Assembly (NCBI GenBank): GCA_964455875.1
Contig: CAYVYZ010000002.1
Coordinates: 655 to 64,654, forward strand
DNA from: an uncultured Planctomycetia bacterium
Lineage (GTDB): Bacteria; Omnitrophota; Gorgyraeia; Duberdicusellales; 4484-171
Direction of reading: 5' to 3'
Length of the DNA: 64,000 nucleotides
Position 1 is the stretch's first letter, and each line of letters starts with the position of its first letter. The notes under the pieces were generated by a model. That model saw only the letters and a program-made list of their open reading frames with translations, had not been told where the DNA came from and ran no database searches. Below are positions 918 through 56,922 of this stretch, in pieces. Made by a program: the position numbers and the translations under genes.

Positions 918-1242
918 TTTTAATTATTCTATATGAATCATCGTCTTCGTGATGCGTTGAGAACTCTATGATTTCTGCGTCTGTCACACCACCAAACGAA
1001 TGAACAAGGCCGGGAGGTATATGAATTATTGCTCCTTCATCTAATACTTCATATTTTATTTCTCCATCCTGGACTGTCATCATACCAACCTTACCCTTAT
1101 TAACATAAAACGTTTCGTCTTTCTTTAAATGAAAATGAAGACTGCACATCATTCCTTTCTTAACCACGAGTTTCTTACCACAATACTGTTTGTTAACAAT
1201 CCATTCTTCATATCCCCACGTCTTATCAACCTTTTTTACCAT
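859..1242 (-). CDS. cupin-domain protein resembling the C-terminal domain of mannose-6-phosphate isomerase / GMP
   Basis: WGYEEW...CSLHFHLKKDETFYVNKG...IHIPPGLVHSF...IIEFSTHHEDDDSYRI fits the type-II PMI cupin signature. Confidence 0.6.
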   Translation of the reverse strand: MVKKVDKTWGYEEWIVNKQYCGKKLVVKKGMMCSLHFHLKKDETFYVNKGKVGMMTVQDGEIKYEVLDEGAIIHIPPGLVHSFGGVTDAEIIEFSTHHEDDDSYRIIKSGEMLERLETFFKANPGKP

Positions 1243-5273: not shown

Positions 5274-5714
5274 TCATAACTCCTTGGTTTTTTCAACTGC
5301 ACCTTTCATAATCTCAGAACTGCTTCTCACCTTCTTACCACCGGTTCCCCACACCATCTTAATACCCAACTCATTACATAAATTTATTTCTGGAACATCT
5401 TTCAATGTTCGTCTCTTATCTCCTCCAAGACAAAACACGTCTGGGTGGAAAACCTCTAGCTCTGTGCAAACAGACATATCTTTTGGGTTTTCATCGTGAA
5501 AACTAATTTTTACATCGTCAACATAACGCAACGCTTTCAAAATTTCTTTTCTGTCATTCTCTGACATAAAAACAAACCCCTTCTTCTTCTTAAGCCAGTT
5601 ATCATTATTTAATATGACTAGTAACGTGTCTCCATAATCTCTGGCTTCTTTTAAAAAATTGATATGTCCGACGTGCAAGGGGTCAAAACCTCCTGATACG
5701 GCTACTGTAACCAC
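5274..5714 (-). CDS. cytidylyl/adenylyltransferase-like nucleotidyltransferase (HldE domain II / TagD family)
   Basis: VAVSGGFDPLHVGHINFLKEA (an HxGH motif) followed by DTLLVILNND. Confidence 0.7.
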   Translation of the reverse strand: MVTVAVSGGFDPLHVGHINFLKEARDYGDTLLVILNNDNWLKKKKGFVFMSENDRKEILKALRYVDDVKISFHDENPKDMSVCTELEVFHPDVFCLGGDKRRTLKDVPEINLCNELGIKMVWGTGGKKVRSSSEIMKGAVEKTKEL

Positions 5715-13824: not shown

Positions 13825-13834
13825 TTTTTCACCT

Positions 13835-35433: not shown

Positions 35434-36480
35434 TTATTCAGAACTAGTTATTATCTTTCTTATTCTCTTAGCAGTGTTCTTTATGTGTTCCTCGGCTTCT
35501 TCGTCTGTTTTATTAGATACTTGGCTTACATACCTTTTTAGGTTAGCATAATGTAGTGGTAGTAGGTGTTTTGTTGTTTCTTCCGGGGTGTAATCATTGT
35601 TTTGTGCCGCCGCGATTAGTGTTAGAGGCCAGGTTCTTCTTCTTAGCGGGTTGTAGTTGTTTTTTTCTTCTAGGTTTTTTGTGTTCGGGATTAGTGTTTG
35701 TTCTTCTTTTTTCTGTGGTTCGCCTATAATGGTTGGTGTGATTACAGGGCCTAACCGCGGAGAGTGTTTGCGCATAACACGAAGGAGTGTGTTGTTCACT
35801 TCGTGGAACATCTGGGAGAGGTCTGTCGCTGGGTCTTTAACATTATGAATTTTGCTTCCGAGATGAGCCTGGGCTAACTCGAAGTTGTTAAGCAATGCGT
35901 TAAGAGTCATAAAAACATCTATTCCGAAGCCACGAACATCTCTGTCCCAGGGTAAAGACATCAAGTATTCGATGAATTTAACACTAAGTCCGAACTCTCC
36001 TCCGATGGGCTGACGGACGTTTATCCCGTAAAAACCGTAGATAAGAGGATAAACAATATGGTTGGTGATAGTCGCGTCAAACTTGTGCCTGGAATAAAGA
36101 GGGAGAACAAAATCGGCTCCGGCTAACACCGGCTCACAAAGATTCCTCACCCAAAAAGGCTTAATGCTGGTTAAATCAGCATCGACAACAATCACTGCCC
36201 TTGGGTGTAACTCCAAAACCAGGCTGAACAAATTAAAGAAGTTATTGCCTTTCCCCTTAACACCAGGCTCAGAAGATAAGTACTTCTTAGGAATACCTAA
36301 GGTGTTAGCCTTCAAAAACTCTTTACGAGTATTATCAGGACTACAATTATCAACGTTAACAATAAGAGAATTAAGATTAGAAAAATATTTGTTAAGCCCA
36401 ACAGCAACTACTTCTACCACACGCCTAATAGAGCTTTCTTCACAATAACTGGGAATACCGACGATAATATCAACACCCAT
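35434..36480 (-). CDS. glycosyltransferase, GT-A fold (GT2/GT81-like)
   Basis: DIIVGIPSYCEE...LIVNVDNCSPDNT...AVIVVDADL (the DxD motif). Confidence 0.6.
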   Translation of the reverse strand: MGVDIIVGIPSYCEESSIRRVVEVVAVGLNKYFSNLNSLIVNVDNCSPDNTRKEFLKANTLGIPKKYLSSEPGVKGKGNNFFNLFSLVLELHPRAVIVVDADLTSIKPFWVRNLCEPVLAGADFVLPLYSRHKFDATITNHIVYPLIYGFYGINVRQPIGGEFGLSVKFIEYLMSLPWDRDVRGFGIDVFMTLNALLNNFELAQAHLGSKIHNVKDPATDLSQMFHEVNNTLLRVMRKHSPRLGPVITPTIIGEPQKKEEQTLIPNTKNLEEKNNYNPLRRRTWPLTLIAAAQNNDYTPEETTKHLLPLHYANLKRYVSQVSNKTDEEAEEHIKNTAKRIRKIITSSE

Positions 36481-36544: not shown

Positions 36545-37168
36545 TTAAATGATTTTATCAGCTAAACCAAGTTTAACTGCTTCTTCGGCGCTCATATAAT
36601 AATCGTATTTCATTAACTCCCTAAGCTTTTTTCTAGTGAACTTAGGATGCTTTTTACGTATCTGAGCTAGATAAATGTTTTCCATGAGCTCGTTTATACG
36701 ATTAGTTTCTTCTGCGGCCCTAACAAAATCTTTAGTATGAACCTGGTCAGTAGCTTCTGTTCCGTAATGAATCATAACCCTGCAATTCTTAGATAAAACT
36801 CTCTCTTTACAAGCCTGTAAGATTATGCTTCCCATACTCCTACAACGACTATAAGCAATCATTTTAACAGGGCTCTTAAGAGTTCTGATGAACTCATAAA
36901 TAGCCATACCTGCGTCCCATTCACCACCATGACTATTCCAAATAAGAGTAATCGTCTTATGGTTTATTTGGTCTAACAAGTATAATCCTTTAATAAGCTG
37001 TTCTGCACTCCAATCATTCACTTCCATGCTTTCACCAGTACCAAGACCTAAATTAATACTGCTGTTAGCACCATAATAAATCGTTCTGGTCTTATAATCG
37101 ATGTTATATTCAAAAAAATACGCGATGTCCGTTTCAACCAATTTTCTTTTTACCATTTTAACACTCAC
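36545..37168 (-). CDS. ClpP-like serine protease (S14 family)
   Basis: ITLIWNSHGGEWDAGMAIYEFI...SRCRSMGSIILQAC...VMIHYG...MSAEEAVKLGLADKII. Confidence 0.65.
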   Translation of the reverse strand: MSVKMVKRKLVETDIAYFFEYNIDYKTRTIYYGANSSINLGLGTGESMEVNDWSAEQLIKGLYLLDQINHKTITLIWNSHGGEWDAGMAIYEFIRTLKSPVKMIAYSRCRSMGSIILQACKERVLSKNCRVMIHYGTEATDQVHTKDFVRAAEETNRINELMENIYLAQIRKKHPKFTRKKLRELMKYDYYMSAEEAVKLGLADKII

Positions 37169-38820: not shown

Positions 38821-39029
38821 TGTTCTGTCTTTTTCTTTTTTGAAGTTTCCTTCTTTTTCTTTTCCTCTTCCTTTGTTTTTATATTAATAAATGGGTTGTC
38901 ATAATCTTCGATATTATCCAAACCAATTTTTTCAATAAGACATCCTAAACAATATGTGAATCTTTTACCTCCTCCCATTAATCTCATCACCCATGTATTA
39001 AAGTGTCCACATTTATTTTTTATTGCCAT
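38817..39029 (-). CDS. small zinc-ribbon protein upstream of terL
   Basis: CGHF...CLGC with a K/E-rich tail. It may be a terminase-associated protein. Confidence 0.3.
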   Translation of the reverse strand: MAIKNKCGHFNTWVMRLMGGGKRFTYCLGCLIEKIGLDNIEDYDNPFINIKTKEEEKKKKETSKKKKTEQ

Positions 39030-40095
39030 TTTTTATTACCTCTTTCATTTCCATTATTCTATGAATGAATGTGTGTTTGGTTAAAACCGTTCTCTGTCCA
39101 TTCCTACCAATTTTCTTACATAATTCTTCGTTTTTCAAAAGAAAGTCTATCATATCTATTAAACCATCTTCATCGTAATAAACTAATAGGTCTTCTTCTC
39201 CAGTAATTTTTTCTCCTTTCTTATTAATCTTAAACATATTTTCCATTCCTTTACAATAGGTGGTTAAATATAGACCTCCTGCGCACAAAACTCTATAGAG
39301 TCTTGCGCTGAAACCAAGCTCTATGTCTGGGTCTTGGTCTATACCAAGATTAATAATGGAAGCTTCTACAACCATACTATGAATAAGATTTATAGCTTGT
39401 TTGTTTGTATGAACTGTTTTTAATATTGGTGGTAGTAACTTCCATTCACACACAACAGGTCCCCAGATTTTCAGGTCAAACCCCTCTTCAGCCAGTCTTG
39501 TAAGTATTTTTACTCTATTAGAGTGTTGTTTTAAGAAACCAATACTACCAATAAACGTTACGTCAGAACCATACTTCTTCCTTTGATAAGCGTTTAAATA
39601 AACACCTTTATTCAGATTAGGATAACACCCCTCGTCTAAATACCTTACGTTTTCAAAACCAGCCTCTTTGAGTTTATCAGCCACTCCTTTTAAACTACAA
39701 AAAAAGTAATCATAAAATTTAATAGCTTCAAAAAACTCTGTTTGTTCCCAAATTGGTTTATCAACAAGATACTTATCAAAGAACCAATTAACTATTTTTG
39801 CTTTTGGAAATTTTTCTCTTAATTTTTTTAGTGTGTCCATATGAAGCTCTAATCCTTTAAAAACAATGATTAAATCATAATCTGTTTCAAAAACATCGAT
39901 TTCTTTTAAAATACGTGGTTGAGCATTAAATATTCCTTCTTTATTAACAATAACTCGGATATCTATACCATCAACTCTATAACCGCTTTCTTGAAAAGAT
40001 AGTGCTATATACCACGCAGTCTGCCTATCTTTGAAGCTACCAAGCAACAAAACATTCTCTTTTTCTTCTTTTTTCTTGTTCATGACCACCACCAA
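39013..40095 (-). CDS. glycosyltransferase, CgeB-like GT-B family
   Basis: SARLYRVLCAGGLYLTT...HTFIHRI. Confidence 0.5.
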   Translation of the reverse strand: MVVVMNKKKEEKENVLLLGSFKDRQTAWYIALSFQESGYRVDGIDIRVIVNKEGIFNAQPRILKEIDVFETDYDLIIVFKGLELHMDTLKKLREKFPKAKIVNWFFDKYLVDKPIWEQTEFFEAIKFYDYFFCSLKGVADKLKEAGFENVRYLDEGCYPNLNKGVYLNAYQRKKYGSDVTFIGSIGFLKQHSNRVKILTRLAEEGFDLKIWGPVVCEWKLLPPILKTVHTNKQAINLIHSMVVEASIINLGIDQDPDIELGFSARLYRVLCAGGLYLTTYCKGMENMFKINKKGEKITGEEDLLVYYDEDGLIDMIDFLLKNEELCKKIGRNGQRTVLTKHTFIHRIMEMKEVIKNGNKK

Positions 40096-41020
40096 TATCT
40101 TTTTTTAATTCTTCTGCTGTAACAGTTGCAGTTCCAAGCTTCCCAACAACGATGCCTGCGGCATGATTAGCAAGTATAGCACTTTCTTCAAGAGACAAAC
40201 CAGATACTAGTGCAAGAACTAATCCTGCTACAAAAGTGTCTCCGGCACCAGAAACATCATAAACTTTCTTTGCTTTAGTAGGAATATGTGTGTGTTTTTT
40301 TGTGTGTTTATCAAATATGGAAAGGCCTTCCGGTCCTCGTGTAACTATGACATTCGAATTTAATTTTCTTAATAGTTTCTTACCAATTTGTTTGATATTA
40401 TCTGCTCCACACATTTCTTTTGCTTCCTTCAAATTTGGTGTTACAACAAAAACTTTTTTAAACCAATTAGTATGTGCTGGTGTTGGGTCAACCACCACTT
40501 TCATCTGATTATTCTTCAACTCTTTCATAAGTCTTTGTGTTATCATGCCTTTGTTATAATCAGAAACTATTATCATATCAAAGTTGTTTTGCTTAGAGAA
40601 CTTTATAATCCCATTAATTAATTTTCCTGGTAAAGGATTACATACTTCCCAATCAATTCTTAATAATTGTTGTCCGTTAGCCATAGCTCTTGTTTTCTTA
40701 ATGGTAAGATAATCTTCTCTCTCTATCAGGTTTGGTATAATGTTGTGTGTTGCCAATAATTTTAGTAACATATCTTTTTCATTATCATTTCCTACTTGTC
40801 CTATAAGAGTGCACTTTCCTCCAAGGGAAGTGATGTTGCTAGCTAAATTTGCGGCGCCACCAGCACGATAATCTACTTTCTTAACATTTATAACCGGAAC
40901 AGGAGCTTCTGGGCTGATACGATTAACATCTCCAAAAAGATATTCGTCCACCATTAAATCTCCAATAACCAAAATATTGGCTTTATTGAACTTATTAATT
41001 GCTCCTATTAATTTTTTCAT
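40037..41020 (-). CDS. sugar kinase of the pfkB family, resembling D-beta-D-heptose 7-phosphate kinase (HldE/RfaE domain I)
   Basis: ILVIGDLMVDEYLFGDVNRISPEAPVPV and DVSGAGDTFVAGL. Confidence 0.7.
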   Translation of the reverse strand: MKKLIGAINKFNKANILVIGDLMVDEYLFGDVNRISPEAPVPVINVKKVDYRAGGAANLASNITSLGGKCTLIGQVGNDNEKDMLLKLLATHNIIPNLIEREDYLTIKKTRAMANGQQLLRIDWEVCNPLPGKLINGIIKFSKQNNFDMIIVSDYNKGMITQRLMKELKNNQMKVVVDPTPAHTNWFKKVFVVTPNLKEAKEMCGADNIKQIGKKLLRKLNSNVIVTRGPEGLSIFDKHTKKHTHIPTKAKKVYDVSGAGDTFVAGLVLALVSGLSLEESAILANHAAGIVVGKLGTATVTAEELKKDIGGGHEQEKRRKRECFVAW

Positions 41021-42096
41021 TTTCTCACTATAGACTCCATTATTTTAAGCATAGCTCTGGCAATATTGTCAAAACTACCGGTTTCTCTACCATGCACAAC
41101 ACCTTGTTTAAGTCTGTTTTTTATCACATCTCTCTTGAGAGACCTTACATAAGCTATTGTTTCTGCCAGACTAAACGGATTAGTGACATCACAGTAAAAA
41201 GGAAAATCACCATATAAATCATGAAGTATTTTAAAATCTCCACAAATAACGGGTTTTCCAACAAACATCCCTTCCAGGGGACTAAGACCAGCAATATATT
41301 CGGTGTTCTGTGGATATAAAAGCATCGCGCTGTTTTTAATAAGTTCGAACTTCTCTTTCTGGGTTATAAGGCTTTTGTGTTCAAATGGAATGTTGTTCTC
41401 TTCACACACTTTCTTTATAAGTTCTAACTCCCCCCTATCTCGTCCAATACAAAAATATTTTAAATCTGGTTTTAATAAAGCTAGGGCTTTGGCTACCATT
41501 AAACAATTCTTTTTTGGTGTGAGCCTGGAAATAGTAATAACGTAATCTCCTTCTATATCTAACCCAGCTCCTTCATACTCCGGAAACAAATCTGTTCCAG
41601 CAGGAATCACATGAGTATCAGGGAACCAGTGTTTAGTATACTTATAATATTCGTCCCTAGCTACATAAGTATTAAAAATTAGTGTGTCTGCTTGTTTTAA
41701 AACATCAAACCAAAAAGACCATTGTCGCATTCTCCACCTTTCTTCTTTCATAGCATCTGTTGGGACATCAAGTATCATTATTCCCCATGGTAATTTATAA
41801 ACTCTTGCTAGATAAGCTACTACCGGTGATATCGGTGTGTGTGAACCAAATATTAAATCAAACTTTTCTCTAGCAAACAAATCAAGAGTCTTACTATGCA
41901 TTTTCGCAGGCACAAAAAACTTCTCGTAATCTATGTTAATCCTTGTAAGATTTTCATGTGGCTCTATAGGATTATCTTTATCATATTCGTCTAGTTGTTG
42001 AACAACAGCGGTAACTTTATGACCCGCTCTACAAAAAGCGTTACAAAGCCCAATCACAAAATTCGCGCTTTCAGCACCAAAATATAATATGTTCAT
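41017..42096 (-). CDS. glycosyltransferase family 4-like (GT-B)
   Basis: GLSPLEGMFVGKPVICGD. Confidence 0.6.
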   Translation of the reverse strand: MNILYFGAESANFVIGLCNAFCRAGHKVTAVVQQLDEYDKDNPIEPHENLTRINIDYEKFFVPAKMHSKTLDLFAREKFDLIFGSHTPISPVVAYLARVYKLPWGIMILDVPTDAMKEERWRMRQWSFWFDVLKQADTLIFNTYVARDEYYKYTKHWFPDTHVIPAGTDLFPEYEGAGLDIEGDYVITISRLTPKKNCLMVAKALALLKPDLKYFCIGRDRGELELIKKVCEENNIPFEHKSLITQKEKFELIKNSAMLLYPQNTEYIAGLSPLEGMFVGKPVICGDFKILHDLYGDFPFYCDVTNPFSLAETIAYVRSLKRDVIKNRLKQGVVHGRETGSFDNIARAMLKIMESIVRK

Positions 42097-43970
42097 TCTA
42101 ATACCTCTTCAAACGATTTAACAATATAATCTAGGTCTTCCTGATTCAAGAATTGGTGGCAACCGATATAAAAAGTTTGTCTACCAATAAATTCTGCTAC
42201 TGGCAACTTATTTTCATATTCTTTTTTTAAATGAGCTAAGGATGGCATATCGAGTGGTAAACAACCATACATAGGCCTTGTTTCAATTCCTTTTTCTTCA
42301 AGAGCTTCCCTAAACTCCGCCCTGCTAATCACGTTCTTATCTTTAATCACTATTGGATAACCAAGGTAAGCAATATCCTTATCATATTTTGGTAATTGTA
42401 TAATACCCCTATCTTCATATTTTTTCAGTCGTTCATTAAGGTATTTTACATTATCGTTTCGTTTCTTAATAATATCGTTTATGGTTTTGAATTGTTCAAA
42501 AGCTAATCCTGCGGCGAACTCTGTAGACCTATAATTACCACTAATCATATCGTGATAATATCTTGGGTGTAAATCCCTTTCATCTCTAAACATTTTATCC
42601 TTAAAATATTGTTCGTCCTCTTTGAAATAACAGGACACCCTACCATTAGATTTAAGCTTGTCATAAATCCTGTATAAATCCGCATTATTAGTGTTGATTG
42701 TTCCCATCTCACCACATTGTATTGTGTGAGCTATGAAAAAAGAGCAAGCTGACCATAACCCCCAACTACCAAGCTTTTTGCCTTTATAAGTAGTCCCGTA
42801 ACCCTGACAATTATCCTCTATTACAGGAATACCGTGTTTATCAGCTATCTCTCTAATTTTATCAATTTCGCATGGTATTCCCATAATATGAACCGGCATA
42901 ACTGCTTTTATATCTGGGTGCTCTTTAAGAGTTTTTTCAAGAGCTTCCGGGGACATACCAAGAGTGTTTTGGTCTATATCTACAAACACTGGTTCGTTGC
43001 CTGTTAAATAAATGGCGTTAATAGTAGCCATATAAGTGAAGGGAGTAGTGGCTATTTTCCCTTTATTCTTAAAAAATTCGTTCATGGCTCTCAAACCAAC
43101 TATTAACGCTGATGTGCCAGAATTAGTAGTAGTACAATAATTTGTGCCGATATACTCTGCCCACAAAGCAGAGAACATCTCAGAGTATTTTCCTTCAGAT
43201 ATTCTTCCAGAATCAAGTATTTCGTTAATCCTATCCTTTTCTTCTTGAGTAATTTTTAAATCACCGGTTGGGATTCTATAAGACATTTTCTTCTTCCTCC
43301 ATAAATAAATTGTTTCTTTTTGAGTAGTATAATAATAAATTTTATCAAAGTTTTTTTCCATATAATCTTCGAATTCTTCTTTTACAAGTAAGTTCTTAGC
43401 TAAGTGTTGTGGTGTGTGCGCACCAACACTAAACATCATACCAGTTGTTAACATATATCCTCTTGGTTTCAATAACGATGATAAGTGTTTCATAGTTTCA
43501 AGTGGATTATCTAAATGCTCTAAAACATCTATGGTCATTATCACATCGTATTTTAACTTATTCATCATTTCTTCATCAATAAACGAAACCTGTTTTTTCA
43601 TATGTTTACAACAAAACTTAGCGAAATCTTGTGTTATTCCCGGAACATCATAATAGTAAACATTATGATTATCTGATAAAGCTATGCTTATGGCTCCTAT
43701 CCCACCACCAAAGTCTAATATATCAAGCCCTTTACACAAACCATTTATCGGGTGAATAACATTGTTTACTCGTTTATCATCACTAAAACCTAACAAACCA
43801 AATATTGTCGTGTCTGACTTCTCATAATATTTTTCTTTACCAAGCTTCCACCAATCTTCAACAGCTTTTTTTGGGTTTCTCCTAATCTTTTCATTTACTT
43901 CAAAACTATCTAAGTTGAAGAACACTTCTGCAAGTTTTTTCATAGTTCGAATCATATTTTCTCCCTCCAA
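42093..43970 (-). CDS. bifunctional SAM-dependent methyltransferase (N-terminal) and DegT/ArnB-type PLP sugar aminotransferase (C-terminal)
   Basis: LDFGGGIGAISIAL...YYDV is the class I MTase motif. RISEGKYSEMFSALWAEYIGTNYCTTTNSGTSAL is the aminotransferase part. Confidence 0.65.
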   Translation of the reverse strand: MEGENMIRTMKKLAEVFFNLDSFEVNEKIRRNPKKAVEDWWKLGKEKYYEKSDTTIFGLLGFSDDKRVNNVIHPINGLCKGLDILDFGGGIGAISIALSDNHNVYYYDVPGITQDFAKFCCKHMKKQVSFIDEEMMNKLKYDVIMTIDVLEHLDNPLETMKHLSSLLKPRGYMLTTGMMFSVGAHTPQHLAKNLLVKEEFEDYMEKNFDKIYYYTTQKETIYLWRKKKMSYRIPTGDLKITQEEKDRINEILDSGRISEGKYSEMFSALWAEYIGTNYCTTTNSGTSALIVGLRAMNEFFKNKGKIATTPFTYMATINAIYLTGNEPVFVDIDQNTLGMSPEALEKTLKEHPDIKAVMPVHIMGIPCEIDKIREIADKHGIPVIEDNCQGYGTTYKGKKLGSWGLWSACSFFIAHTIQCGEMGTINTNNADLYRIYDKLKSNGRVSCYFKEDEQYFKDKMFRDERDLHPRYYHDMISGNYRSTEFAAGLAFEQFKTINDIIKKRNDNVKYLNERLKKYEDRGIIQLPKYDKDIAYLGYPIVIKDKNVISRAEFREALEEKGIETRPMYGCLPLDMPSLAHLKKEYENKLPVAEFIGRQTFYIGCHQFLNQEDLDYIVKSFEEVLE

Positions 43971-44920
43971 AAATCAAGCACCTCTTTTATTGTGTCGGCA
44001 ACAGAAATTTCTGGTTTCCAATCTGGGCACACCGATTTAAACTTAGTGGTGTCTGGCACTTGCATATTAACATCTTTTGGTCTTAATAGTTTTTCATCAA
44101 CAATTACTTCTATTTCTCCCTTTTTAGGACTAAGAGAAATCATGTGTGCTAATACATGACCAACCATCCAGGTTTCTTCACCCCCAATATTATAAGCTTC
44201 ACCCCACTTACCATTATCTGTGAGCATCCAATAAGCTCTGACACAGTCTTTCACATTCATAATGGTTCTATGACTCTTAAGATTGCCAACATAAATTTTT
44301 GGTTCTTGCAATCCTTTCTCTATTTTAGCTATTTGTTTAGCAAAAGCAGAAACGAAAAAGACATCACCACGCCTCTTACCAGTATGAGTGAATGCCCGTG
44401 TAATAACGGTTTTTAAGCCATAACATTTATGATACATTCTTCCGGCTAGGTCTTGCCCTACTTTACTAAGAGCATATGGTGATAATGGGTCAAAAGGCTC
44501 TGACTCAGATGTTGGTGTGTTAACTTGATGACCGTAAACCTCTGAAGACGAACAAATCAATATGACAGCGTCTTTATTATATTTATTCACCGCCTCAAGT
44601 AAATTGATTGTCCCGATAATATTTGCTTCTATAGTAGCACTAGGAGCACTGAAAGAAGCAGGAACATAAGACTGTGCGGCTAAATGAAATATTTTGTTAA
44701 ACGAATACTCTTTGAACAATCTCTCAACATTATGGGAGTCTGTTAAATCACACTCAACCCAAATTATCCTATCAGATTTGATATGTTCCACGTTTTTCAT
44801 ACTACTAGTATGTGCTCGTTGCATACAACAAACCATATAATCAGGATGGTTCTCAAGAATGTATTCTATTAAATGTGAACCAACAAAACCATTAGCTCCT
44901 GTTATTAAAACTTTTTTCAT
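43952..44920 (-). CDS. NAD-dependent sugar epimerase/dehydratase (extended SDR)
   Basis: MKKVLITGANGFVGSHL and the YxxxK region. The start was trimmed to MKKVL. Confidence 0.7.
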   Translation of the reverse strand: MKKVLITGANGFVGSHLIEYILENHPDYMVCCMQRAHTSSMKNVEHIKSDRIIWVECDLTDSHNVERLFKEYSFNKIFHLAAQSYVPASFSAPSATIEANIIGTINLLEAVNKYNKDAVILICSSSEVYGHQVNTPTSESEPFDPLSPYALSKVGQDLAGRMYHKCYGLKTVITRAFTHTGKRRGDVFFVSAFAKQIAKIEKGLQEPKIYVGNLKSHRTIMNVKDCVRAYWMLTDNGKWGEAYNIGGEETWMVGHVLAHMISLSPKKGEIEVIVDEKLLRPKDVNMQVPDTTKFKSVCPDWKPEISVADTIKEVLDFWREKI

Positions 44921-45062
44921 TATAAATCCACCCATTCTTTTTCTACAAATATTTGTGCTTTTGGGCATCTAGAACAACCTCTTGAGTTGCCCATCTTATC
45001 ATACACCCAGTGATGAAAATTAAAAAAACAATCATACCTATGTAGCTTCATAGTTTTTCTTT

Positions 45063-45353
45063 TCATTCTATAATATCGTATGTTTTTTCAAAAATTTCTT
45101 TATCACAAGGATATTTTTCTCCATTTACTCCAAACATTAAATAGTCTCCTGGCTTCCCAAAAACAACACCTTCCATAGTAGTTACTTTAAAACCTCCTGG
45201 AAAATTTATTTGTACCGCTTTAACTACAATAGGTTTTTTTCTACACTTAATAATATCTTTTTCTTCCAACTTATCTAATGTTATTTCATCTGCATTAAAT
45301 AGCTCCATCTTAATCTCTTCCTTTAGCTTTAAAAATTTTTGGGTCTTGGTCAC
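45063..45353 (-). CDS. hypothetical protein
   Basis: 96 aa. Confidence 0.35.
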   Translation of the reverse strand: MTKTQKFLKLKEEIKMELFNADEITLDKLEEKDIIKCRKKPIVVKAVQINFPGGFKVTTMEGVVFGKPGDYLMFGVNGEKYPCDKEIFEKTYDIIE

Positions 45354-45810
45354 CCGCTGACTCAGTACCGTTTATTAATCCAACAATTTTATCTTCTAGT
45401 TTCTTTCTCAGCTTAATCCTATTGTTATTAGCACTTCTAGAGGCGTCCACCAAAAACTTAACCCTGTCAGGACTTGGTTTTGGTAATTTATTTAATTCTC
45501 TGAGCTCATATTCTGAAAACCAAATCTTTAAATGAGATATTATAAAAGCATCAATTAAAAAACTAAAAGACTCAACTATGTTTCCGCCTTCCTCAGGAAT
45601 ATTTATTCCTTCTTTTTTTAATAACTCTAATAATGTAACTTCTATCTCGTTCTTCAACTTAGCTCTTCTATCATTAGATTCTCTAGCATGTTTTACAATC
45701 TCGGTGAAATCTGTCCCAGTATTATACTGACCTAATTTTAACTCATAAAAGAAATTTTCTGTGTCGGCATCAATTAATAACTCTATTAAATCTAATAATT
45801 TTTTAATCAT
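45310..45810 (-). CDS. hypothetical protein
   Basis: 166 aa. Confidence 0.35.
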   Translation of the reverse strand: MIKKLLDLIELLIDADTENFFYELKLGQYNTGTDFTEIVKHARESNDRRAKLKNEIEVTLLELLKKEGINIPEEGGNIVESFSFLIDAFIISHLKIWFSEYELRELNKLPKPSPDRVKFLVDASRSANNNRIKLRKKLEDKIVGLINGTESAGDQDPKIFKAKGRD

Positions 45811-46495
45811 TTTTTCTCACCTTAAATTCTCTATCAAGATTAGTAGAAAACAAATATGTCGGAGTGGAATTAAACACTTTCTCATATTGTTTATACCCCA
45901 ACGGCTCTAATATTTTTGTAACATCTTTAAGCATTTTTTCAGTAGAACACTCTATAAATATATCGGGTTTCCATTTTTTTAACGATTTTATAGAGCCTTT
46001 TAATACTTCTAATTCGTATCCTTCTACATCTATCTTTATTAAAGTAATTTTTTCAAAATTGAAATCGTCAAGTTTAACTATTGGAACAATATATTCTCCT
46101 CTTTCATCATCTGTGAAACCACCCCCACTAGACCTCTTATCAAAATGGAACTTTTTTGTGCCACAAGTATTACCAAGAGATACGGAGTGTGGTTCTACAT
46201 TTTTAATATTATTCGCGTGTAAATTCAGTAATTGATGAAAAAACGTTCCAAAATAGGGTTCGAAAGAATGAACTTTATCAGCTACTTTTGAAAACGCTGT
46301 TGTGTGATTACCAATAGAAGAACCAACATCTATAAATATTCCTCCTTTATAATTATCCAGAATGAAGTTAATCATCTCTTCTTCATAATATCTATGGTTT
46401 GCCCACCATGATTGCTGAATATCTTCTGGATAGAATACTAAAAACTTAAAACCATCGACCTCACCATAAGGGATTTCAAATCTTAATTTTCTCAT
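45803..46495 (-). CDS. FkbM-family SAM methyltransferase
   Basis: IFIDVGSSIGNHTT and LIKIDVEGYELEVLKG. Confidence 0.6.
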   Translation of the reverse strand: MRKLRFEIPYGEVDGFKFLVFYPEDIQQSWWANHRYYEEEMINFILDNYKGGIFIDVGSSIGNHTTAFSKVADKVHSFEPYFGTFFHQLLNLHANNIKNVEPHSVSLGNTCGTKKFHFDKRSSGGGFTDDERGEYIVPIVKLDDFNFEKITLIKIDVEGYELEVLKGSIKSLKKWKPDIFIECSTEKMLKDVTKILEPLGYKQYEKVFNSTPTYLFSTNLDREFKVRKND

Positions 46496-46496
46496 T

Positions 46497-47564
46497 TTAA
46501 ACTCCTATATCTTTTTTAACTATATCTAATAAATATTTTTTGTTTTTCTCAATATCATATTTTTCTTCTGCTATAAATCTAGAATTATTTTTTAATAATG
46601 GTAATAATGATTTATTCATAATATTTACCATTTTGTTTTTTAAATCAATAGAATCTACTTCTGCCACTAACACGGAAATATCTGTATACTCTACTAAATT
46701 TGGTGTACAAAGATATCCGTTGATGCCTGTTTGAATAAACTCATTCATTGGTGGCATATCTACTGTAATAACAGGTATACCAAGAGCAAGTGATTCAAGT
46801 ATTGGTAAACCAACTGTTTCCCATTTGCTCGGTACAACAGTGCAATCTGCTTGCCTAAAAATTTCTAGGAACTCTTTTCTTGTAAGATTCTTATTTATCA
46901 ATTCAACGTTTTTTGGTATTTTTTTTAATATGATTGGGCGTTGTGATGTGATTATTAATTTAACATCATCTCTTTTAAGTTTGGTAAACGCCTTGAGAAC
47001 TTTATCAGTGTTTTTTCTATGATGAACACCACCCCACCCACCAGGGTGAAAAAACGTGAATTTTTCGTTTTTAGGTGGTTCATATTTCTGGAATTCGTTT
47101 TTAAAATCCACAGAATGCGGCACATAAGCATGATTTCTTACTTTATGCATTCTAAGAAACCTTTGATGTGTTTTAGTTGGGCAGATTAACCTATCATAGT
47201 CTTTTGTTAATGATTTTTTAAATCGTTCCATAACCAAATAACCATAAACAACACAACCAAGTTCTTTTGCTTCTCGCACAAGGTTTTGACCATCATCACC
47301 CCATTGATTATACTCATTAAAAATAACTAAATCAATTTTATTTTTTTTAATCCATTTTTTAAATACTTCTTTATCTATATGGTATCCTGGAACTTCTTCT
47401 ATATGTACATCAACTACTTTGAAATTTTCGTCAATCTCGTTTTTGCCTTGTTTAAGAATGTAGACATCGTATTCTGGTATGAGCATCTTACTCCATATTA
47501 GTGCCGCGTAAGCAAGTCCTCTACCCCATCCCCAAAATGTTGGCATACCAATTCTTTTCTTCAT
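46497..47564 (-). CDS. glycosyltransferase, GT-B (GT1/GT4-like)
   Basis: ETVGLPILESLALGIPVITVD. Confidence 0.6.
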   Translation of the reverse strand: MKKRIGMPTFWGWGRGLAYAALIWSKMLIPEYDVYILKQGKNEIDENFKVVDVHIEEVPGYHIDKEVFKKWIKKNKIDLVIFNEYNQWGDDGQNLVREAKELGCVVYGYLVMERFKKSLTKDYDRLICPTKTHQRFLRMHKVRNHAYVPHSVDFKNEFQKYEPPKNEKFTFFHPGGWGGVHHRKNTDKVLKAFTKLKRDDVKLIITSQRPIILKKIPKNVELINKNLTRKEFLEIFRQADCTVVPSKWETVGLPILESLALGIPVITVDMPPMNEFIQTGINGYLCTPNLVEYTDISVLVAEVDSIDLKNKMVNIMNKSLLPLLKNNSRFIAEEKYDIEKNKKYLLDIVKKDIGV

Positions 47565-47770
47565 TTTTTACTCTCCTTATAAATCTTATAGAGTTCGTAG
47601 AGCTCATCGATTAGTTTTCTAACATCCCTTAATTCTACCCTATCATTAGTAATCAAGAATTCTACTGGAAAATCAAGCTTGTCTTTAAGGTTGTTAAGTG
47701 CAACACTCAAACCACGTATTTGTTCTGGTGTGCCATCCACTACTGCAACATGAACAATTTTCACACTCAT
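47561..47770 (-). CDS. hypothetical protein
   Basis: 69 aa. Confidence 0.3.
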   Translation of the reverse strand: MSVKIVHVAVVDGTPEQIRGLSVALNNLKDKLDFPVEFLITNDRVELRDVRKLIDELYELYKIYKESKK

Positions 47771-47778
47771 AGTCTCAC

Positions 47779-48066
47779 CTATTCAATATCGGCGAATATT
47801 AAAGGTTTTTCAACTTCTTTTTTTATTTTCTTTCTTTTCTCTTTAACTTTCTCAAAATAACCAATCTCTTTCTTTATCCTATTTAATAATCTGTTTAATT
47901 GATGCTTGGTTGCGCGATAAGGAAGTTTTTTATATAATAATTTTTTGTTCTTATCATCGTCTTCATAATACCAGAAAAGCACAGCCCCCTTATTTAATGT
48001 CACTTTTCTAATATATGAAAGTGTTTCAATCTCTTTTCTTACCCAGTTATACAGAGTCATCTTCAA
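47779..48066 (-). CDS. hypothetical basic protein
   Basis: 95 aa. Confidence 0.3.
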   Translation of the reverse strand: MKMTLYNWVRKEIETLSYIRKVTLNKGAVLFWYYEDDDKNKKLLYKKLPYRATKHQLNRLLNRIKKEIGYFEKVKEKRKKIKKEVEKPLIFADIE

Positions 48067-48847
48067 ATTCGTTATCTAGTTTAAGAGATATTGATGCTGG
48101 GAAGAATCTGTTTTTAATAATATCGAAGTTTTCTCTGATACAATGGCCTCCAATCTTACCCGGTATATACTTTAAAATTGGGCGTATAAATTGTGATTCA
48201 CCGAGTTCTGTGTAACCATCGTTATAAATTTTGTTTGTTTTTGTATATACGCTTTCGAAGTCTAAACCATGTTCTTCACATAATTTATAAACATATTTCA
48301 TAAATAAAATATTCCAACCAAAATAAGATGTGCTTAACAGTTTTGCAGCCTCGCTTTCTTCTGGTTTTTTATAAACTTCTGTTTTTACCCCTAATTCTTT
48401 GAAATGAGCTACAGCTTTATCAACGGATGTTTTATTAGGGCCCGCGACTATCTTCTTAAATGTTCGTATGCTTTCGGTTAAGTTTGGGTGTCTACCCATA
48501 ATAGGCGAATGAACTACATCTGTATCAGTATACCTAAACACATCCATTGTTATACCAATATCTACTGTACTATTAATTATTGTTAGTTCTGGTGTATACT
48601 CCTTTATATAGGATACAATAGTAGATAAGAAGTTTGGTGTATAAGGTATACAAACGTGTAAGACTGTTATGGCAGGTATATCCTTTATTCCTTTAGCGTT
48701 TATTACCGCTCCGAAAGGTTCTTCGATATACCGATCCTCCTTATACGCGGTATCGCGTATATAGACTGTGTACTCGGTATTGTCCTTGTATAAACCCGCA
48801 ACTCCTTTACCGAGTTCTCCGAATCCGAGTATAAGTATGTTTTTCAT
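48047..48847 (-). CDS. nucleotide-sugar dehydrogenase-like protein (UDP-glucose/GDP-mannose dehydrogenase family, short form)
   Basis: An N-terminal Rossmann fold, MKNILILGFGELGKG, then KLLSTSYFGWNI and GGHCI (the catalytic-Cys context). Confidence 0.45.
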   Translation of the reverse strand: MKNILILGFGELGKGVAGLYKDNTEYTVYIRDTAYKEDRYIEEPFGAVINAKGIKDIPAITVLHVCIPYTPNFLSTIVSYIKEYTPELTIINSTVDIGITMDVFRYTDTDVVHSPIMGRHPNLTESIRTFKKIVAGPNKTSVDKAVAHFKELGVKTEVYKKPEESEAAKLLSTSYFGWNILFMKYVYKLCEEHGLDFESVYTKTNKIYNDGYTELGESQFIRPILKYIPGKIGGHCIRENFDIIKNRFFPASISLKLDNEFEDDSV

Positions 48848-49422
48848 TACGTATCACCTATGTTAAGCTTATCCGCTATTTTAGAATCTGCTTCTAATAT
48901 CTCACCGTCTACATCTATAACCGCGGCCTTGAACATTTCTTTCCTAATATCTTTCATCTGGGTATCCATATCGGTGGTTATCTCGTTATAGATAAAATTA
49001 ATATCCACACTTCCTTTTGGTTTCATATCGCCTGTTAACTTAGCGATGAGTTCTATGCCTTGCATTAGACGACCTACTAATTGATTATATGTAGCAAAAT
49101 CTTTTTCATCTTTAGCAGTATTCTTTACTTCTTCTACTTCTTTTAGTATAGCCTTTAAGGCGTTACCATAATCCATTGTAAGTTTCTTTATCTCAGAGGC
49201 TGTTCTTAAATCTCTCTGTATAAGAGCTTGTTGAGCTTGTTTTGTTTTCCTTATGAATTTCCTTATTGATTGAGCGGTAATATTAATTCCTTCTGAATTA
49301 AGACGTCTGGTAAGCGCTTCGACAGAAAATCTTGGTTTTTTCATTTCTTCATAAATCCTGTTCTGAAGTCCTAACTGTATTACTTTCAGCACATTGCCTT
49401 TCAGTTTAGCTTCTTGCTCCAT
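48847..49422 (-). CDS. hypothetical protein with a possible HTH, first gene of the leftward operon
   Basis: SVEALTRRLNSEGINITAQSIRKFIRK. It could be a regulator or a small terminase. Confidence 0.3.
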   Translation of the reverse strand: MEQEAKLKGNVLKVIQLGLQNRIYEEMKKPRFSVEALTRRLNSEGINITAQSIRKFIRKTKQAQQALIQRDLRTASEIKKLTMDYGNALKAILKEVEEVKNTAKDEKDFATYNQLVGRLMQGIELIAKLTGDMKPKGSVDINFIYNEITTDMDTQMKDIRKEMFKAAVIDVDGEILEADSKIADKLNIGDT

Positions 49423-51431: not shown

Positions 51432-51778
51432 GTAAAAAAAACAAGACCGAACAACTTATTAAAAAACTGGATAAGATGCTCACAGTTGGCGGTGCCGGAC
51501 CGTCTGTCTCACCTGACTCGTCCGGTAGTGGAAGGCTTCCACTATCGGACATTTTAATTACAAAAGATATTGATTTAAGTTCCTTGGACGAAAACCAACT
51601 TTATTTCGTTCATGTGATGCTTCATAAGTTTTATGCCACTGGGCGAAACAAACACTTATCCAAAGAAGATATTAAGTCTTTACATAACGAGATACGAAAA
51701 AAAATTAAACATGAAAACTTTGATACATTAGATATGGAAAATGGACACCACACAGGAAGTGATAGAAAGAGTGAATAA
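51428..51778 (+). CDS. hypothetical protein
   Basis: 116 aa. Confidence 0.35.
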   Translation: MSKKNKTEQLIKKLDKMLTVGGAGPSVSPDSSGSGRLPLSDILITKDIDLSSLDENQLYFVHVMLHKFYATGRNKHLSKEDIKSLHNEIRKKIKHENFDTLDMENGHHTGSDRKSE

Positions 51779-55755: not shown

Positions 55756-56922
55756 ATGTATGAATTAAGTGGAGTAGATAAAAAAAATAAGAGTGGTGGA
55801 GACCAGCAAGAACGAATTGAAGCACTAAGCCAGAAATTATTTGGTAAACCTGTAAAAGAAATAAAATACCTTTATGTAACGAATTACATTCACAAACAAT
55901 TATTAGATGAAGATTTAACAAGAACAGGACTTTATCAATGGATTAATGTTTTCAATGGTGAAGTAAAGTATCCTAGGGATGTCATAAACTATAATGATTA
56001 TGACATCGTCCATATTAATATGGCACCACAAGACGTCCATTTAATATATAAAGTAAGACAAGAAATAGGGGATAACTCAAAGACTAAGCTCGTGGTTAAC
56101 AACGATTTTACATCAGAGATGTGGGCTAGCTCGTATGATTTTCCACACACACTAGAAGCAATATTGAAGTATCCAGACATGATTTTTGGAACAGAATATT
56201 TTCAAGTAAGTGCTTTATCAGAGTTAGCGCATAGAAAAGTATACATTATACCGCATCCTGCAGATGTTAGAAGATTAAAAGCATTAACACCGTTACCAAA
56301 GAAACCAATAATTTCAACGATTTGGAGGCGATACGACAGGTTCGCTTATGTGCCAAGCCTTGTTGTTAGAAATCATGGTTTAACAACACAATTAATTGGT
56401 TATGACAAAGAGAAAGATAACAGATTTTTTATGACATCAACACTTTATGATTATGTGTTAGCAGGAACCAACTTTTTCGAGTTTTGTGACCAATTACGTG
56501 AAAGCAAAATAGTTTATGACCCATTTACTTTTCATAGTTATAGTAGAACAACAGTAGATACTGCGGCTATGGGAGTAGCTGTTGTTGGAAGCGACAGGAC
56601 ACAAAGTATGAAAATTTGTTATCCATACACTTGTGTCGACCCTTATGACGTATCCAGGGCAAGACAATTAATAAGAAGGTTGTTAGAAGACGAAGATTTT
56701 TATGAGTTGGTAGTCAAAACAGCTAAAGAAAAAGTGGAGTTTTACAATCACCAGAACTCAAGAGAAAGATTTTTAGTAGCGCTTCATGATTCAATTTATG
56801 GTAAAGAAGAAAAAAAAGAAGATATAAAAAAGAAGACCACTATCTCCAGAGGAAGAGGAGATGATGTGCTTGATTTACACGCAAATAGTATAACAAGAGG
56901 CAAGTCAAAGAATGAGCAATAA
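55756..56922 (+). CDS. glycosyltransferase-like protein (GT-B?) inside the structural block
   Basis: TVDTAAMGVAVVGSD looks like a GT-B C-terminal motif, but the call is weak. Confidence 0.35.
   Translation: MYELSGVDKKNKSGGDQQERIEALSQKLFGKPVKEIKYLYVTNYIHKQLLDEDLTRTGLYQWINVFNGEVKYPRDVINYNDYDIVHINMAPQDVHLIYKVRQEIGDNSKTKLVVNNDFTSEMWASSYDFPHTLEAILKYPDMIFGTEYFQVSALSELAHRKVYIIPHPADVRRLKALTPLPKKPIISTIWRRYDRFAYVPSLVVRNHGLTTQLIGYDKEKDNRFFMTSTLYDYVLAGTNFFEFCDQLRESKIVYDPFTFHSYSRTTVDTAAMGVAVVGSDRTQSMKICYPYTCVDPYDVSRARQLIRRLLEDEDFYELVVKTAKEKVEFYNHQNSRERFLVALHDSIYGKEEKKEDIKKKTTISRGRGDDVLDLHANSITRGKSKNEQ

Follow-up and report, generated by a model that had tools for sequence, protein, structure and literature searches.

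A putative glycan locus between the terminase and portal genes of a tailed-virus contig

Genes of the island

The island described here is a run of sugar-pathway genes at positions 39013-48847 of a 64,000-nucleotide stretch of contig CAYVYZ010000002.1 (assembly GCA_964455875.1, positions 655 to 64,654 of the forward strand). The whole stretch is referred to as the window, and genes are named by the lower coordinate of their reading frame (Table 1). The window is a fragment of a tailed-virus genome, and the island fills the interval between the genes for the large terminase (TerL) and the portal. An earlier reading, made from the sequence alone, had described ten minus-strand genes for glycan synthesis at this place. 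The island, its coordinates and its strand were recovered, but it holds 11 minus-strand open reading frames (ORFs) of at least 95 amino acids (aa), eight of which match families of sugar pathways. The ORFs are tightly packed, with stop/start overlaps from 48847 through TerL and gaps of 94, 192 and 214 nt only. Finding eight sugar-pathway genes in one overlapping run is far beyond chance.

Table 1. Position, strand and assignment of the island genes and of other features in the window
Feature	Position	Strand	Evidence or remark
Metal-binding cupin	859..1242	-	Cupin_1/2; PMI C-terminal domain 22.9 bits (cut-off 23.6)
Cytidylyltransferase-like nucleotidyltransferase	5274..5714	-	rfaE_dom_II 71 bits (cut-off 181.5); TagD 60 bits
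RadA	6416-7357	-	
GT-A glycosyltransferase (GT2/MGS/GpgS-like)	35434..36480	-	PF21969 31 bits; PF00535 28.5 bits; NF010496 59 bits
Large terminase TerL	37165-38820	-	PHROG 38, E 3e-57; Terminase_6C; downstream island boundary, same strand as island
Glyco_trans_1_2 (CgeB-like GT-B) glycosyltransferase	39013..40095	-	PF13524 54.7 bits (cut-off 25); immediately upstream of TerL
HldA/HldE-domain-I-type D-glycero-beta-D-manno-heptose-7-phosphate kinase (predicted)	40037..41020	-	PfkB 162 bits
GT4 (GT-B) glycosyltransferase, TerL side of island	41017..42096	-	Glycos_transf_1 44.7 bits (cut-off 26.4); Glyco_transf_4 37
Class-I SAM methyltransferase (about aa 80-200) fused to predicted ColD-type PMP-dependent sugar 3-dehydratase (aa 230-625)	42093..43970	-	
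Extended SDR, predicted NDP-heptose 4,6-dehydratase	43952..44968	-	GDP_Man_Dehyd 258 bits
PGDYG-like phage protein, 96 aa	45063..45353	-	PF14083 23 bits (under cut-off); PHROG 419, E 1e-15, unknown function
ORF of 166 aa	45310..45810	-	no Pfam, NCBIfam or PHROG match
FkbM-family SAM methyltransferase	45803..46495	-	PF05050 67 bits; TIGR01444 86.5 bits
GT4 (GT-B) glycosyltransferase	46497..47564	-	Glycos_transf_1 74.1 bits (cut-off 26.4)
ORF of 95 aa	47779..48066	-	no family match; weak homologue in L097
Short NDP-sugar dehydrogenase-like protein, 266 aa	48047..48847	-	TIGR03026 45 bits; PF00984 24; PHROG 9148 UDP-glucose dehydrogenase
Conserved 191-aa protein, upstream edge of island	48847..49422	-	homologues 34-66% identity, 8/8 related contigs
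Portal	49950-51431	+	Portal_Mu 36.7 bits; PHROG 9232, E 3e-19; upstream island boundary, divergent transcription
Scaffold-like protein, very acidic	52605-53750	+	
HK97-type major capsid protein (MCP)	53784-54779	+	
Divergent GT-B-fold protein in head module, after MCP and a 203-aa protein	55756..56922	+	

Throughout, the relatives of this virus are eight contigs from IMG/VR whose capsid protein is 61-84% identical to that of the window. Three glycosyltransferases of the island (39013, 41017 and 46497) are recognised by family profiles and a fourth, 35434, as a GT-A enzyme, which bears out the four transferases of the sequence-only reading. The most widely kept is 46497, with homologues in all eight relatives (32-53% identity) and with the E-x7-E nucleotide-sugar motif in place (WETVGLPILE). 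In 41017 the spacing of this motif is E-x8-E; its homologues occur in three relatives (49-54% identity), and it gives weak matches to Agl16 and PglJ. In 39013 the motif position is taken by an Arg that is invariant in three homologues, where the family consensus is Glu. Homologues of 39013 (35-54% identity) adjoin TerL in four relatives, and public gene calls start this gene at 40083, giving a protein of 356 aa. The GT-A gene 35434 lies downstream of TerL and of a ClpP-like protease, and no homologue of it was found downstream of TerL in the relatives.

The remaining sugar-pathway genes on the portal side are 45803 and 48047. The FkbM label of 45803 was retained; it has homologues in two relatives (47-49% identity) and is probably a sugar O-methyltransferase, judging from its family. 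Likewise 48047 keeps its dehydrogenase-like label, on weak matches. This protein has the Rossmann and central domains of its family and lacks the C-terminal nucleotide-sugar-binding domain. Homologues are present in 7/8 relatives, with GxGxxG, K169, N209 and GGHC236 invariant. In the long homologues (L094:2924-4336 and L096:3794-5167) the C-terminal extension of ~200 aa is not the nucleotide-sugar-binding domain either but resembles a helix-turn-helix and HNH endonuclease. We therefore ruled out that 48047 is the truncated remnant of a UDP-sugar dehydrogenase, since the short form is a conserved family with invariant residues of catalytic type and the long forms are HNH fusions. A free-standing HNH gene is present in the L101 island.

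Three ORFs of the island are without a sugar-pathway match. The product of 45063 is probably outside the sugar pathway, 45310 gave no tblastn match in the related loci, and the third is the 95-aa ORF 47779. At the upstream edge, homologues of 48847 invariably adjoin the portal-divergent junction (8/8 related contigs). Its product may be the small terminase; no TerS family match was obtained in Pfam or PHROGs. No island protein has a credible transmembrane segment, as the two hydrophobic windows seen, in 40037 and 46497, both fall inside soluble-enzyme domains. The island also encodes no priming phosphoglycosyltransferase, flippase, polymerase or oligosaccharyltransferase.

Predicted heptose and deoxy-sugar chemistry

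The kinase 40037 was expected to be an RfaE-I-like heptose kinase, and profile and structure-based comparisons agree. It reaches 329.1 bits with TIGR02198 (rfaE_dom_I; cut-off 345), the next unrelated kinase family being ribokinase (TIGR02152) at 102 bits. Its best solved relative is HldA (PDB 4E84, 196 bits), with the next kinase at 52 bits. The PfkB fold and the catalytic GAGD motif are present, and DVSGAGDT aligns with 4E84. By these matches 40037 is an HldA-like kinase, its function being predicted.

Two genes far from the island could contribute to heptose supply. For the nucleotidyltransferase 5274, called HldE-II-like before, rfaE_dom_II is indeed the best family, but the score stays well below the cut-off (Table 1). 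With the adenylyltransferase domain of HldE from DPANN archaea it shares 32-35% identity, and its homologues lie within the island in two relatives (L088, 42%; L096, 32%). It is possibly an HldC-like heptose-1-phosphate adenylyltransferase. The gene 859 had been described as a cupin of the phosphomannose isomerase (PMI) type. It does encode a metal-binding cupin, but the PMI match is sub-threshold; weak matches to cupin-type phosphoglucose isomerases were also obtained. This cupin shares 46% identity with gp216 of Synechococcus phage Bellamy, a protein encoded between the kinase and the nucleotidyltransferase of the Bellamy heptose cluster, and it is probably part of the heptose pathway. It could be an epimerase or, by analogy of reaction only, a PMI-like stand-in for GmhA.

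Other steps are missing from the window. Neither GmhA nor GmhB was detected there by tblastn with the proteins of relatives, and Pfam searches of the ORFs scanned yielded no SIS or HAD protein. Similarly, no C5-epimerase or C4-reductase was recognised in the window (tblastn with the proteins of relatives for the reductase, Pfam for the remaining ORFs). The full set for NDP-heptose supply (GmhA, kinase, GmhB and nucleotidyltransferase) is thus not found in the window, but it is complete in relative 3300021471_000006. The sequence-only reading had held the genes of the window sufficient to make an activated sugar. This does not hold, since GmhA and GmhB are missing, 5274 lies 34 kb away with a score under the cut-off, and no C4-reductase was identified.

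The short-chain dehydrogenase/reductase (SDR) 43952, recognised as such before, has intact SDR motifs (ITGANGFVGS, SSSEVYG and SPYALSK, from the sequence and the alignment with 7US5). Its best solved relative is 7US5, the GDP-D-glycero-D-manno-heptose 4,6-dehydratase of C. jejuni (245 bits), followed by the Rmd reductases 2PK3 (167 bits) and 6X3B (132 bits), GMD (127) and RmlB (120). Against the GMD equivalog TIGR01472 it scores 168 bits, with a cut-off of 415. A homologue with 69% identity is encoded in contig 3300021471_000006, next to a full GDP-heptose module.

The neighbouring gene 42093 encodes a fusion protein. A class-I methyltransferase domain (Methyltransf_23, 53 bits; match at residues 80-175) is joined to a DegT_DnrJ_EryC1 domain (PF01041, 277.5 bits; residues 240-620), as had been proposed. 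The aminotransferase label given to the second domain does not stand. Its best PDB relatives are the E1 3-dehydrases 3BCX/3BB8, with ColD/WbdK lower in the list. In the alignment a His in SFFIAHTIQCGEMG takes the place of the Lys found in perosamine synthase 3DR7, and it also falls on the His/Lys position that distinguishes the E1 entries 3BCX and 3BB8. A DegT aminotransferase is ruled out because this His replaces the Lys that forms the Schiff base, which points to a 3-dehydratase of the ColD/E1 type and hence to a product that would be deoxygenated, not aminated as claimed before. Where E1 has its Cys-rich stretch (CYCAPGCDNTC), the aligned part of 42093 has a single Cys; without this [2Fe-2S] motif, which in the E1 subtype goes with the need for an E3 reductase, the domain would belong to the ColD subtype, which is recycled by glutamate. 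Five homologues in the clade keep the His of 42093 and a His-type DegT enzyme occurs in six clade members, so that 3-deoxygenation appears to be a recurring theme across the clade. In L101 and L096 the methyltransferase domain is encoded by a gene of its own.

In C. jejuni the route to 3,6-dideoxy-heptose starts with a 4,6-dehydratase, followed by a pyridoxal phosphate (PLP)-dependent C3-dehydratase (Ghosh, Xiang & Raushel 2023, PMC10440746). The pairing of 43952 and 42093 mirrors these first two steps. The predicted product is a 6-deoxy- or 3,6-dideoxy-heptose and not an amino sugar, and it is probably methylated.

Related viruses, the head-module gene and the host

In all eight relatives the slot between the 48847-like gene beside the portal and TerL holds sugar genes; for the eighth (L093/L098) similarity searches gave the conserved glycosyltransferases, the dehydrogenase-like gene and a homologue of the His-type DegT enzyme. 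Constant parts of the slot are the 48847-like protein, the 48047 family (7/8) and the glycosyltransferase 46497 (8/8). Homologues of 41017 and 39013 both stand beside TerL in the three relatives that cover this side, and a fourth (3300035698_009722) has the 39013 homologue only, also beside TerL. The glycosyltransferases are conserved, and the genes in mid-slot form a cassette that can be swapped. In 3300021471_000006 this cassette contains the heptose dehydratase mentioned above together with a His-type 3-dehydratase of 57-63% identity, and a GDP-heptose module (GmhA 204 bits, HddA 268, GmhB 156 and an NTP-transferase) occupies the position of the lone kinase of the window. The presence of this module beside the two dehydratases confirms, in a relative, the link of the window genes to heptose. 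The cassette of 3300014204_000192 appears to be a colitose-like hexose version, with a GMD-like SDR (TIGR01472 313 bits, cut-off 415), a His-type DegT enzyme, FkbM and an rfaE-II-like nucleotidyltransferase. In 3300033145_001087 it consists of two GT2s, a CmcI O-methyltransferase, an SDR, a UDP-GlcNAc 2-epimerase and a sulfotransferase-like gene. Other relatives have a pyruvyltransferase, a HAD-GNAT protein, a B12-radical-SAM enzyme, class-I methyltransferases and a GT9 heptosyltransferase-like gene.

Several genes of the relatives carry insertions. TerL of 3300021471_000006 (L002:8021-12082 = L100:11833-15882) is a single ORF of 1353 aa with two in-frame inteins with LAGLIDADG/Hint domains. 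Its sugar 3-dehydratase (L100:3160-5445; L002:191-1633) has a LAGLIDADG intein inside the DegT domain, which makes it an unusual intein host protein and hints at a conserved gene that passes between co-infecting viruses. The portal of IMGVR_UViG_3300025018_000136 (L093:4792-7455) is one ORF of 887 aa with an insert of ~400 aa, probably an intein, between residues that match about 160 and 157 of the window portal. The island of 3300021471_000006 also encodes a Cys-rich protein of 181 aa with an N-terminal, signal-like hydrophobic segment (L100:6615-7160 = L002:2803-3348), the sole secreted-looking product among the islands examined.

The composition of the island matches the rest of the viral genome, with a GC content of 0.330 against 0.361 elsewhere in the window and a codon-usage correlation of r=0.967. 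GC content, codon usage and the presence of the slot in all relatives together rule out a recent host-derived insertion. The island was found to be neither absent from relatives nor composed of inactive remnants, both of which had been raised as possible objections to the sequence-only reading. Catalytic motifs are present where checked (DVSGAGDT in the kinase, TGxxGxxG/SSE/YxxxK in the SDR, E-x7-E in the GT4 enzyme 46497 and GGHC in 48047). One could still regard the cluster as a decayed or non-functional passenger, a set of leftover host glycan genes with no coherent pathway in this virus. Such an origin would fit the incomplete pathway in the window, which lacks GmhA, GmhB and a reductase, and the seemingly mismatched types of kinase and dehydratase. 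We give it very little credence, as all ORFs are intact, codon usage is fully viral, homologues are 32-69% identical across the clade, and an identical TerL with the kinase, glycosyltransferase, ClpP-like protease and GT-A gene as neighbours was found in at least four independent samples. The claim of an intact, virus-owned locus for sugar nucleotides and glycans in the morphogenesis region is thus upheld, and these viruses appear to have had the island for a long time, maintaining and diversifying it. Our literature search found no description of this clade, of this locus or of glycan loci in DPANN viruses.

A further glycosyltransferase-like gene, 55756, lies in the head module. Its product has no sequence match in Pfam, PHROG or PDB, but the suggestion that it resembles a glycosyltransferase holds at the level of the fold. 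The AlphaFold model (29 homologues; pLDDT 87, pTM 0.84) shows a GT-B fold with two Rossmann domains, and the top Foldseek matches are the GT4 enzymes BshA, PimA, MshA and TreT (E 2.7e-11 to 1e-9, probability 1.00, TM about 0.6). Comparison of families by hhalign gave a weak match to the 46497 family over the nucleotide-sugar-binding region (E 2e-4, probability 48%) and no relation to the 39013 family. The canonical E-x7-E is replaced by His-Ser ... Asp. The protein thus models as a GT-B glycosyltransferase, for which activity is not assured given this replacement. Homologues occur in 8/8 relatives, 137 metagenomic proteins match as well, implying more than 100 members of the clade, and the family is duplicated in tandem in IMGVR_UViG_3300014204_000192 (L090:11803-12819 and 13206-14345).

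The fold of 55756 bears on two other uses of the locus. Firstly, a sugar or short glycan could be placed on modified bases of the viral DNA to evade host nucleases, as with glucosyl-hydroxymethylcytosine (hmC) in T-even phages and in arabinosyl-hmC phages. GT-B is also the fold of the T4 alpha- and beta-glucosyltransferases, and the T4 alpha-glucosyltransferase (AGT) is in the Foldseek list of 55756 at rank 37. A position beside the packaging genes would be compatible, and viral glycosyltransferases have been reported to add diverse glycans to DNA (Pyle et al. 2024, as cited in PMC12619734). However, the ~60 ORFs scanned include no thymidylate-synthase-like hydroxymethylase or other base-modifying enzyme, on a contig that is probably incomplete, and four to six glycosyltransferases with deoxygenation, methylation and, in relatives, pyruvylation, sulfation and acetylation resemble the repertoire of a surface glycan. 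DNA hypermodification is therefore improbable, with at most an outside chance. Secondly, the product could be a soluble glycoside or polysaccharide. In this case 35434 would prime a small acceptor, for example a glycerate derivative, and the GT4 enzymes and methyltransferases would extend it to a methylated oligosaccharide or compatible solute. The matches of 35434 to glucosyl-3-phosphoglycerate synthase and mannosylglycerate synthase, the methylmannose-polysaccharide mannosyltransferase that is the second-best fold match of 55756, and the two methyltransferases in the island are consistent with this. Still, 35434 is not kept beside TerL in the relatives, the matches are weak and generic for the GT-A and GT4 folds, and serotype-like swapping of cassettes would be unexpected for an intracellular metabolite, which makes this use highly improbable.

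The host is probably a member of the Woesearchaeota/Nanoarchaeota (DPANN), as suggested by two genes. For RadA, the 80 best matches in genomes (52-59% identity) are, where the titles are informative, almost all metagenome-assembled genomes of Woesearchaeota/Nanoarchaeota, many of them long contigs; 23 bear the generic title "uncultured Methanosarcinales archaeon" and two a bacterial label. The close homologues of the kinase 40037 that have a name (45-52% identity) all come from Nanoarchaeota or Woesearchaeota. On an archaeal chromosomal contig with PolD and Cdc6 the kinase homologue belongs to a cluster that reads GmhB-GT9-GmhA-HldE-SDR-GT9-GT4, and a second context, with a kinase labelled Nanoarchaeota at NCBI, reads GmhA-HldE-GT4-GT4-FkbM-MT-GT9-GT9. 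Judging from these clusters, the likely hosts probably make ADP-heptose and heptose glycans, and they could supply the steps that are missing from the window.

The same clusters are relevant to the alternative that the virus remodels the envelope of its host. The viral glycosyltransferases would then alter a dolichol- or lipid-linked glycan or an S-layer glycan at the cytoplasmic face, and the flippase and oligosaccharyltransferase of the host would export it. This could lead to superinfection exclusion, to progeny that do not stick to infected cells or debris, or to altered attachment of the DPANN cell to its partner. Very similar clusters in the presumed host genomes (GmhA-HldE-GT4-GT4-FkbM-MT-GT9) imply natural acceptors in the host, and Agl16 and PglJ, which 41017 weakly matches, are enzymes of lipid-linked glycans. 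Archaeal lipid-linked glycans are moreover built by soluble or peripheral glycosyltransferases, so that no viral membrane protein would be needed, and similar sugar clusters of cyanophages are usually taken as modifying lipopolysaccharide (LPS) or the cell surface (PMC12801897). Against this, the island itself is without a priming transferase, flippase, polymerase and oligosaccharyltransferase. Its genes are embedded in, and apparently co-transcribed with, those for packaging and the head, and the head module itself contains a GT-B gene; this position would be odd for an early or lysogenic function in surface conversion. No integrase was seen in the window either. Envelope remodelling is possible, but we consider it unlikely on balance.

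The rest of the window is consistent with a tailed virus with replication genes of archaeal type, which lie in the left 35 kb according to profile searches. Encoded there are RadA/Rad51 (255 bits), an RFC-like AAA+ protein, an archaeo-eukaryotic primase (AEP) domain, an ATP-dependent ligase domain, a PD-(D/E)XK/Dna2-like nuclease and a class II ribonucleotide reductase. A small protein (24539-25183, minus strand) combines a match to the AEP-TOTE archaeo-eukaryotic primase domain with a zinc ribbon, and two adjacent ORFs of ~525 aa in the middle of the replication module (19860-21458 and 21478-23049, minus strand) have no Pfam or PHROG match. Pfam and PHROG scans recognised no DNA polymerase in the whole window, which also has no tRNAs. 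The replication half further encodes a trypsin-like peptidase, a transglutaminase-core-like protein and a ThiF/E1-like protein (10501-11277, 13835-14632 and 19108-19920, all on the minus strand), which may form a module for protein modification. The contig of ~65 kb is probably an incomplete genome, given that related contigs reach 94-111 kb. A search of 50,697 phage records gave no near-identical DNA, and the best relatives of TerL there had 27% identity. Identical proteins are encoded on a public contig of about 65.2 kb and occur in several independent samples. The closest named relatives of RadA and the kinase point to a tailed virus of 65 kb or more that infects DPANN archaea, of which few have been described.

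Near the structural genes, the ClpP-family protease gene (36545-37168, minus strand) overlaps the end of terL and was not found downstream of TerL in the relatives. The prohead protease is more likely the product of a conserved 200-aa gene in the interval between portal and scaffold (51741-52343). Two large proteins at 58353-60383 and 60694-63345 (plus strand) are rich in Ser/Thr (20-22%) and have a C-terminal part of ~220 aa in common (31% identity, E 5e-22). Probably paralogues that act as fibres or receptor-binding proteins, they are candidate glycan acceptors. Neither Ser/Thr-rich tails nor sequon enrichment was informative on glycosylation sites in the MCP and the 54877 family.

Proposed function and comparison with known systems

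We tentatively favour the reading that the island is a virus-owned, serotype-like glycan locus for cytoplasmic glycosylation of newly made virion proteins, which we hold to be almost as apt to be right as wrong. Taking the gene content, intactness, slot, cassettes and DPANN affinity described above as the starting point, we infer in what order the reactions run, which nucleotide carries the sugar, and what accepts the glycan and when, as follows. The heptose pathway of the host would provide heptose phosphate, which the viral kinase 40037 drives onward, possibly assisted by 5274 and the cupin 859. The NDP-heptose would then be converted to the 4-keto-6-deoxy-heptose by the 4,6-dehydratase 43952, and the ColD-type domain of 42093 would remove the C3 hydroxyl. 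Methylation would follow by the methyltransferase domain of 42093, by the FkbM enzyme 45803 or by both, with a further redox step by the short dehydrogenase-like protein 48047. The soluble GT-B enzymes 46497, 41017 and 39013, perhaps with the GT-A enzyme 35434 and the GT-B enzyme 55756, would assemble a short glycan in the cytoplasm. A cytoplasmic, soluble system is indicated by the lack of predicted transmembrane segments in the island proteins. The likeliest acceptors would be new Ser/Thr-rich head or fibre proteins, late in infection, alongside packaging and head assembly. An acceptor in the virion is favoured by the position of the locus between portal and TerL and by the GT-B gene in the head module, and also because a cell surface that is already in place is harder for a lytic virus to alter than the proteins it is newly making.

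Several points weigh against this reading. The kinase is of a type that leads to beta-heptose and ADP, whereas the closest characterised and viral relatives of the dehydratase are of the GDP/alpha type; because of this mismatch the steps may not connect as proposed. 43952 is also related to C4-reductases of the Rmd type (167 bits), and its public homologues are named GMD or Rmd. GmhA, GmhB, a clear nucleotidyltransferase, the C5-epimerase and the C4-reductase are all lacking in the window, and neither 39013 nor 55756 has the canonical second Glu of the GT-B nucleotide-sugar motif. The host was assigned on two genes only, RadA and the kinase. Lastly, the virion as acceptor is something we purely infer, and the resemblance of host clusters to the island would fit remodelling of host glycans equally well.

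A wider version of the virion-protein reading is more doubtful. According to this, the hypervariable, serotype-like locus would coat the virions of a widespread clade of DPANN viruses with host-like deoxy-heptose or deoxy-hexose glycans, as a viral "O-antigen" under diversifying selection. The combination of conserved transferases and swappable cassettes does suggest that an exposed glycan is under selection. Should the virion carry this glycan, the locus would represent the first autonomous system for virion glycosylation in archaeal tailed viruses, with 55756 as a glycosyltransferase family of the head module, and virion glycosylation as an adaptive trait would extend to archaeal viruses. 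If it is on the host, the locus would serve to convert the cell surface of a symbiotic archaeon, through which the archaeon attaches to its partner. Virus-encoded sugar pathways are hardly characterised in archaeal tailed viruses and DPANN viruses are barely known. The locus offers testable chemistry, from heptose through the 6-deoxy-4-keto to the 3,6-dideoxy sugar with methylation, and is indirect evidence for heptose glycans as a surface feature of Woesearchaeota/Nanoarchaeota.

The closest known chemistry is the capsule pathway of C. jejuni (PMC10440746), in which a 4,6-dehydratase (7US5) and a C3-dehydratase are likewise adjacent, the one in the window being of the ColD-family His type. 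The feeder module of that pathway (GmhA/HddA/GmhB/nucleotidyltransferase) is also present in relative 3300021471_000006. The window differs in being viral, in having a kinase of the HldA/PfkB type (ADP-beta) instead of the HddA/GHMP type, and in the fusion of the 3-dehydratase to a methyltransferase. The C. jejuni pathway includes a C5-epimerase and a C4-reductase, whereas the window has no identified epimerase or C4-reductase and no machinery for capsule export. The colitose pathway (GMD plus ColD, the GDP-4-keto-6-deoxymannose 3-dehydratase) also has His for the PLP lysine and no Fe-S motif, and relative 3300014204_000192 pairs a GMD-like SDR with a His enzyme of the ColD type. Unlike that pathway, the window has no epimerase/reductase of the ColC type, and its upstream dehydratase is of the heptose type and not GMD.

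Among viruses, genes for rfaE-like kinase/GmhA occur in the cyanophages P-SSM2 and S-SSM7, and Synechococcus phage Bellamy (gp211-228) combines genes for heptose activation and modification with glycosyltransferases, a methyltransferase and a UDP-sugar dehydrogenase, as does the window. Besides gp216, with its 46% identity to the cupin 859, gp219 is 46.6% identical to 43952. These clusters of T4-like cyanophages differ in their bacterial host and their location outside the packaging/head module, and no ColD-type dehydratase is annotated in them. For mycobacteriophages, work by Freeman and colleagues in Cell Host Microbe in 2023 reportedly describes glycosyltransferase and methyltransferase genes near structural genes. 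The phage-encoded soluble glycosyltransferases and methyltransferases of those phages resemble the genes of the window, which lie within or beside the structural operon. Mycobacteriophages use host sugar nucleotides and 2-4 genes, whereas the window has a locus of ~10 kb with its own sugar-modifying enzymes. According to PMC12619734, glycosylation of virions by phage-encoded glycosyltransferases and methyltransferases is established for mycobacteriophages, with the glycans on the C-termini of capsid and tail-tube subunits.

The serotype loci for bacterial O-antigens and capsules share with this virus clade a fixed slot, conserved flanks and a swappable cassette of genes for sugar synthesis, modification and transfer. 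The island lacks their Wzx, Wzy, ABC transporter, priming transferase and ligase, and it sits in a virus genome. The heptose clusters of Nanoarchaeota/Woesearchaeota have a kinase (52% identical), GT4, FkbM, class-I methyltransferase, SDR and PF13524-like glycosyltransferase in common with the island. They differ by a bifunctional HldE, GmhA, GmhB and GT9, and have no ColD-type dehydratase in the two contexts read; the viral glycosyltransferases are 24-33% identical to those of the host clusters. Giant viruses provide examples of autonomous glycosylation, with glycosylation of capsids or fibrils demonstrated, as in chlorovirus PBCV-1 (GMD/GMER and glycosyltransferases) and mimivirus (genes for viosamine, rhamnose and bacillosamine). 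They resemble the window in encoding nucleotide-sugar enzymes (4,6-dehydratases, PLP enzymes and methyltransferases) and cytoplasmic glycosyltransferases with a content that varies by lineage, but they have eukaryotic hosts, belong to an unrelated virus realm and make different sugars. Virus-encoded genes for heptose and deoxy-sugars are thus already known, in cyanophages. New are the context of an archaeal, probably DPANN, virus, the fixed packaging-head slot with serotype-like exchange of cassettes, the predicted chemistry of the ColD type with its methyltransferase fusion, the short dehydrogenase family and the previously unrecognised GT-B family of the head module.

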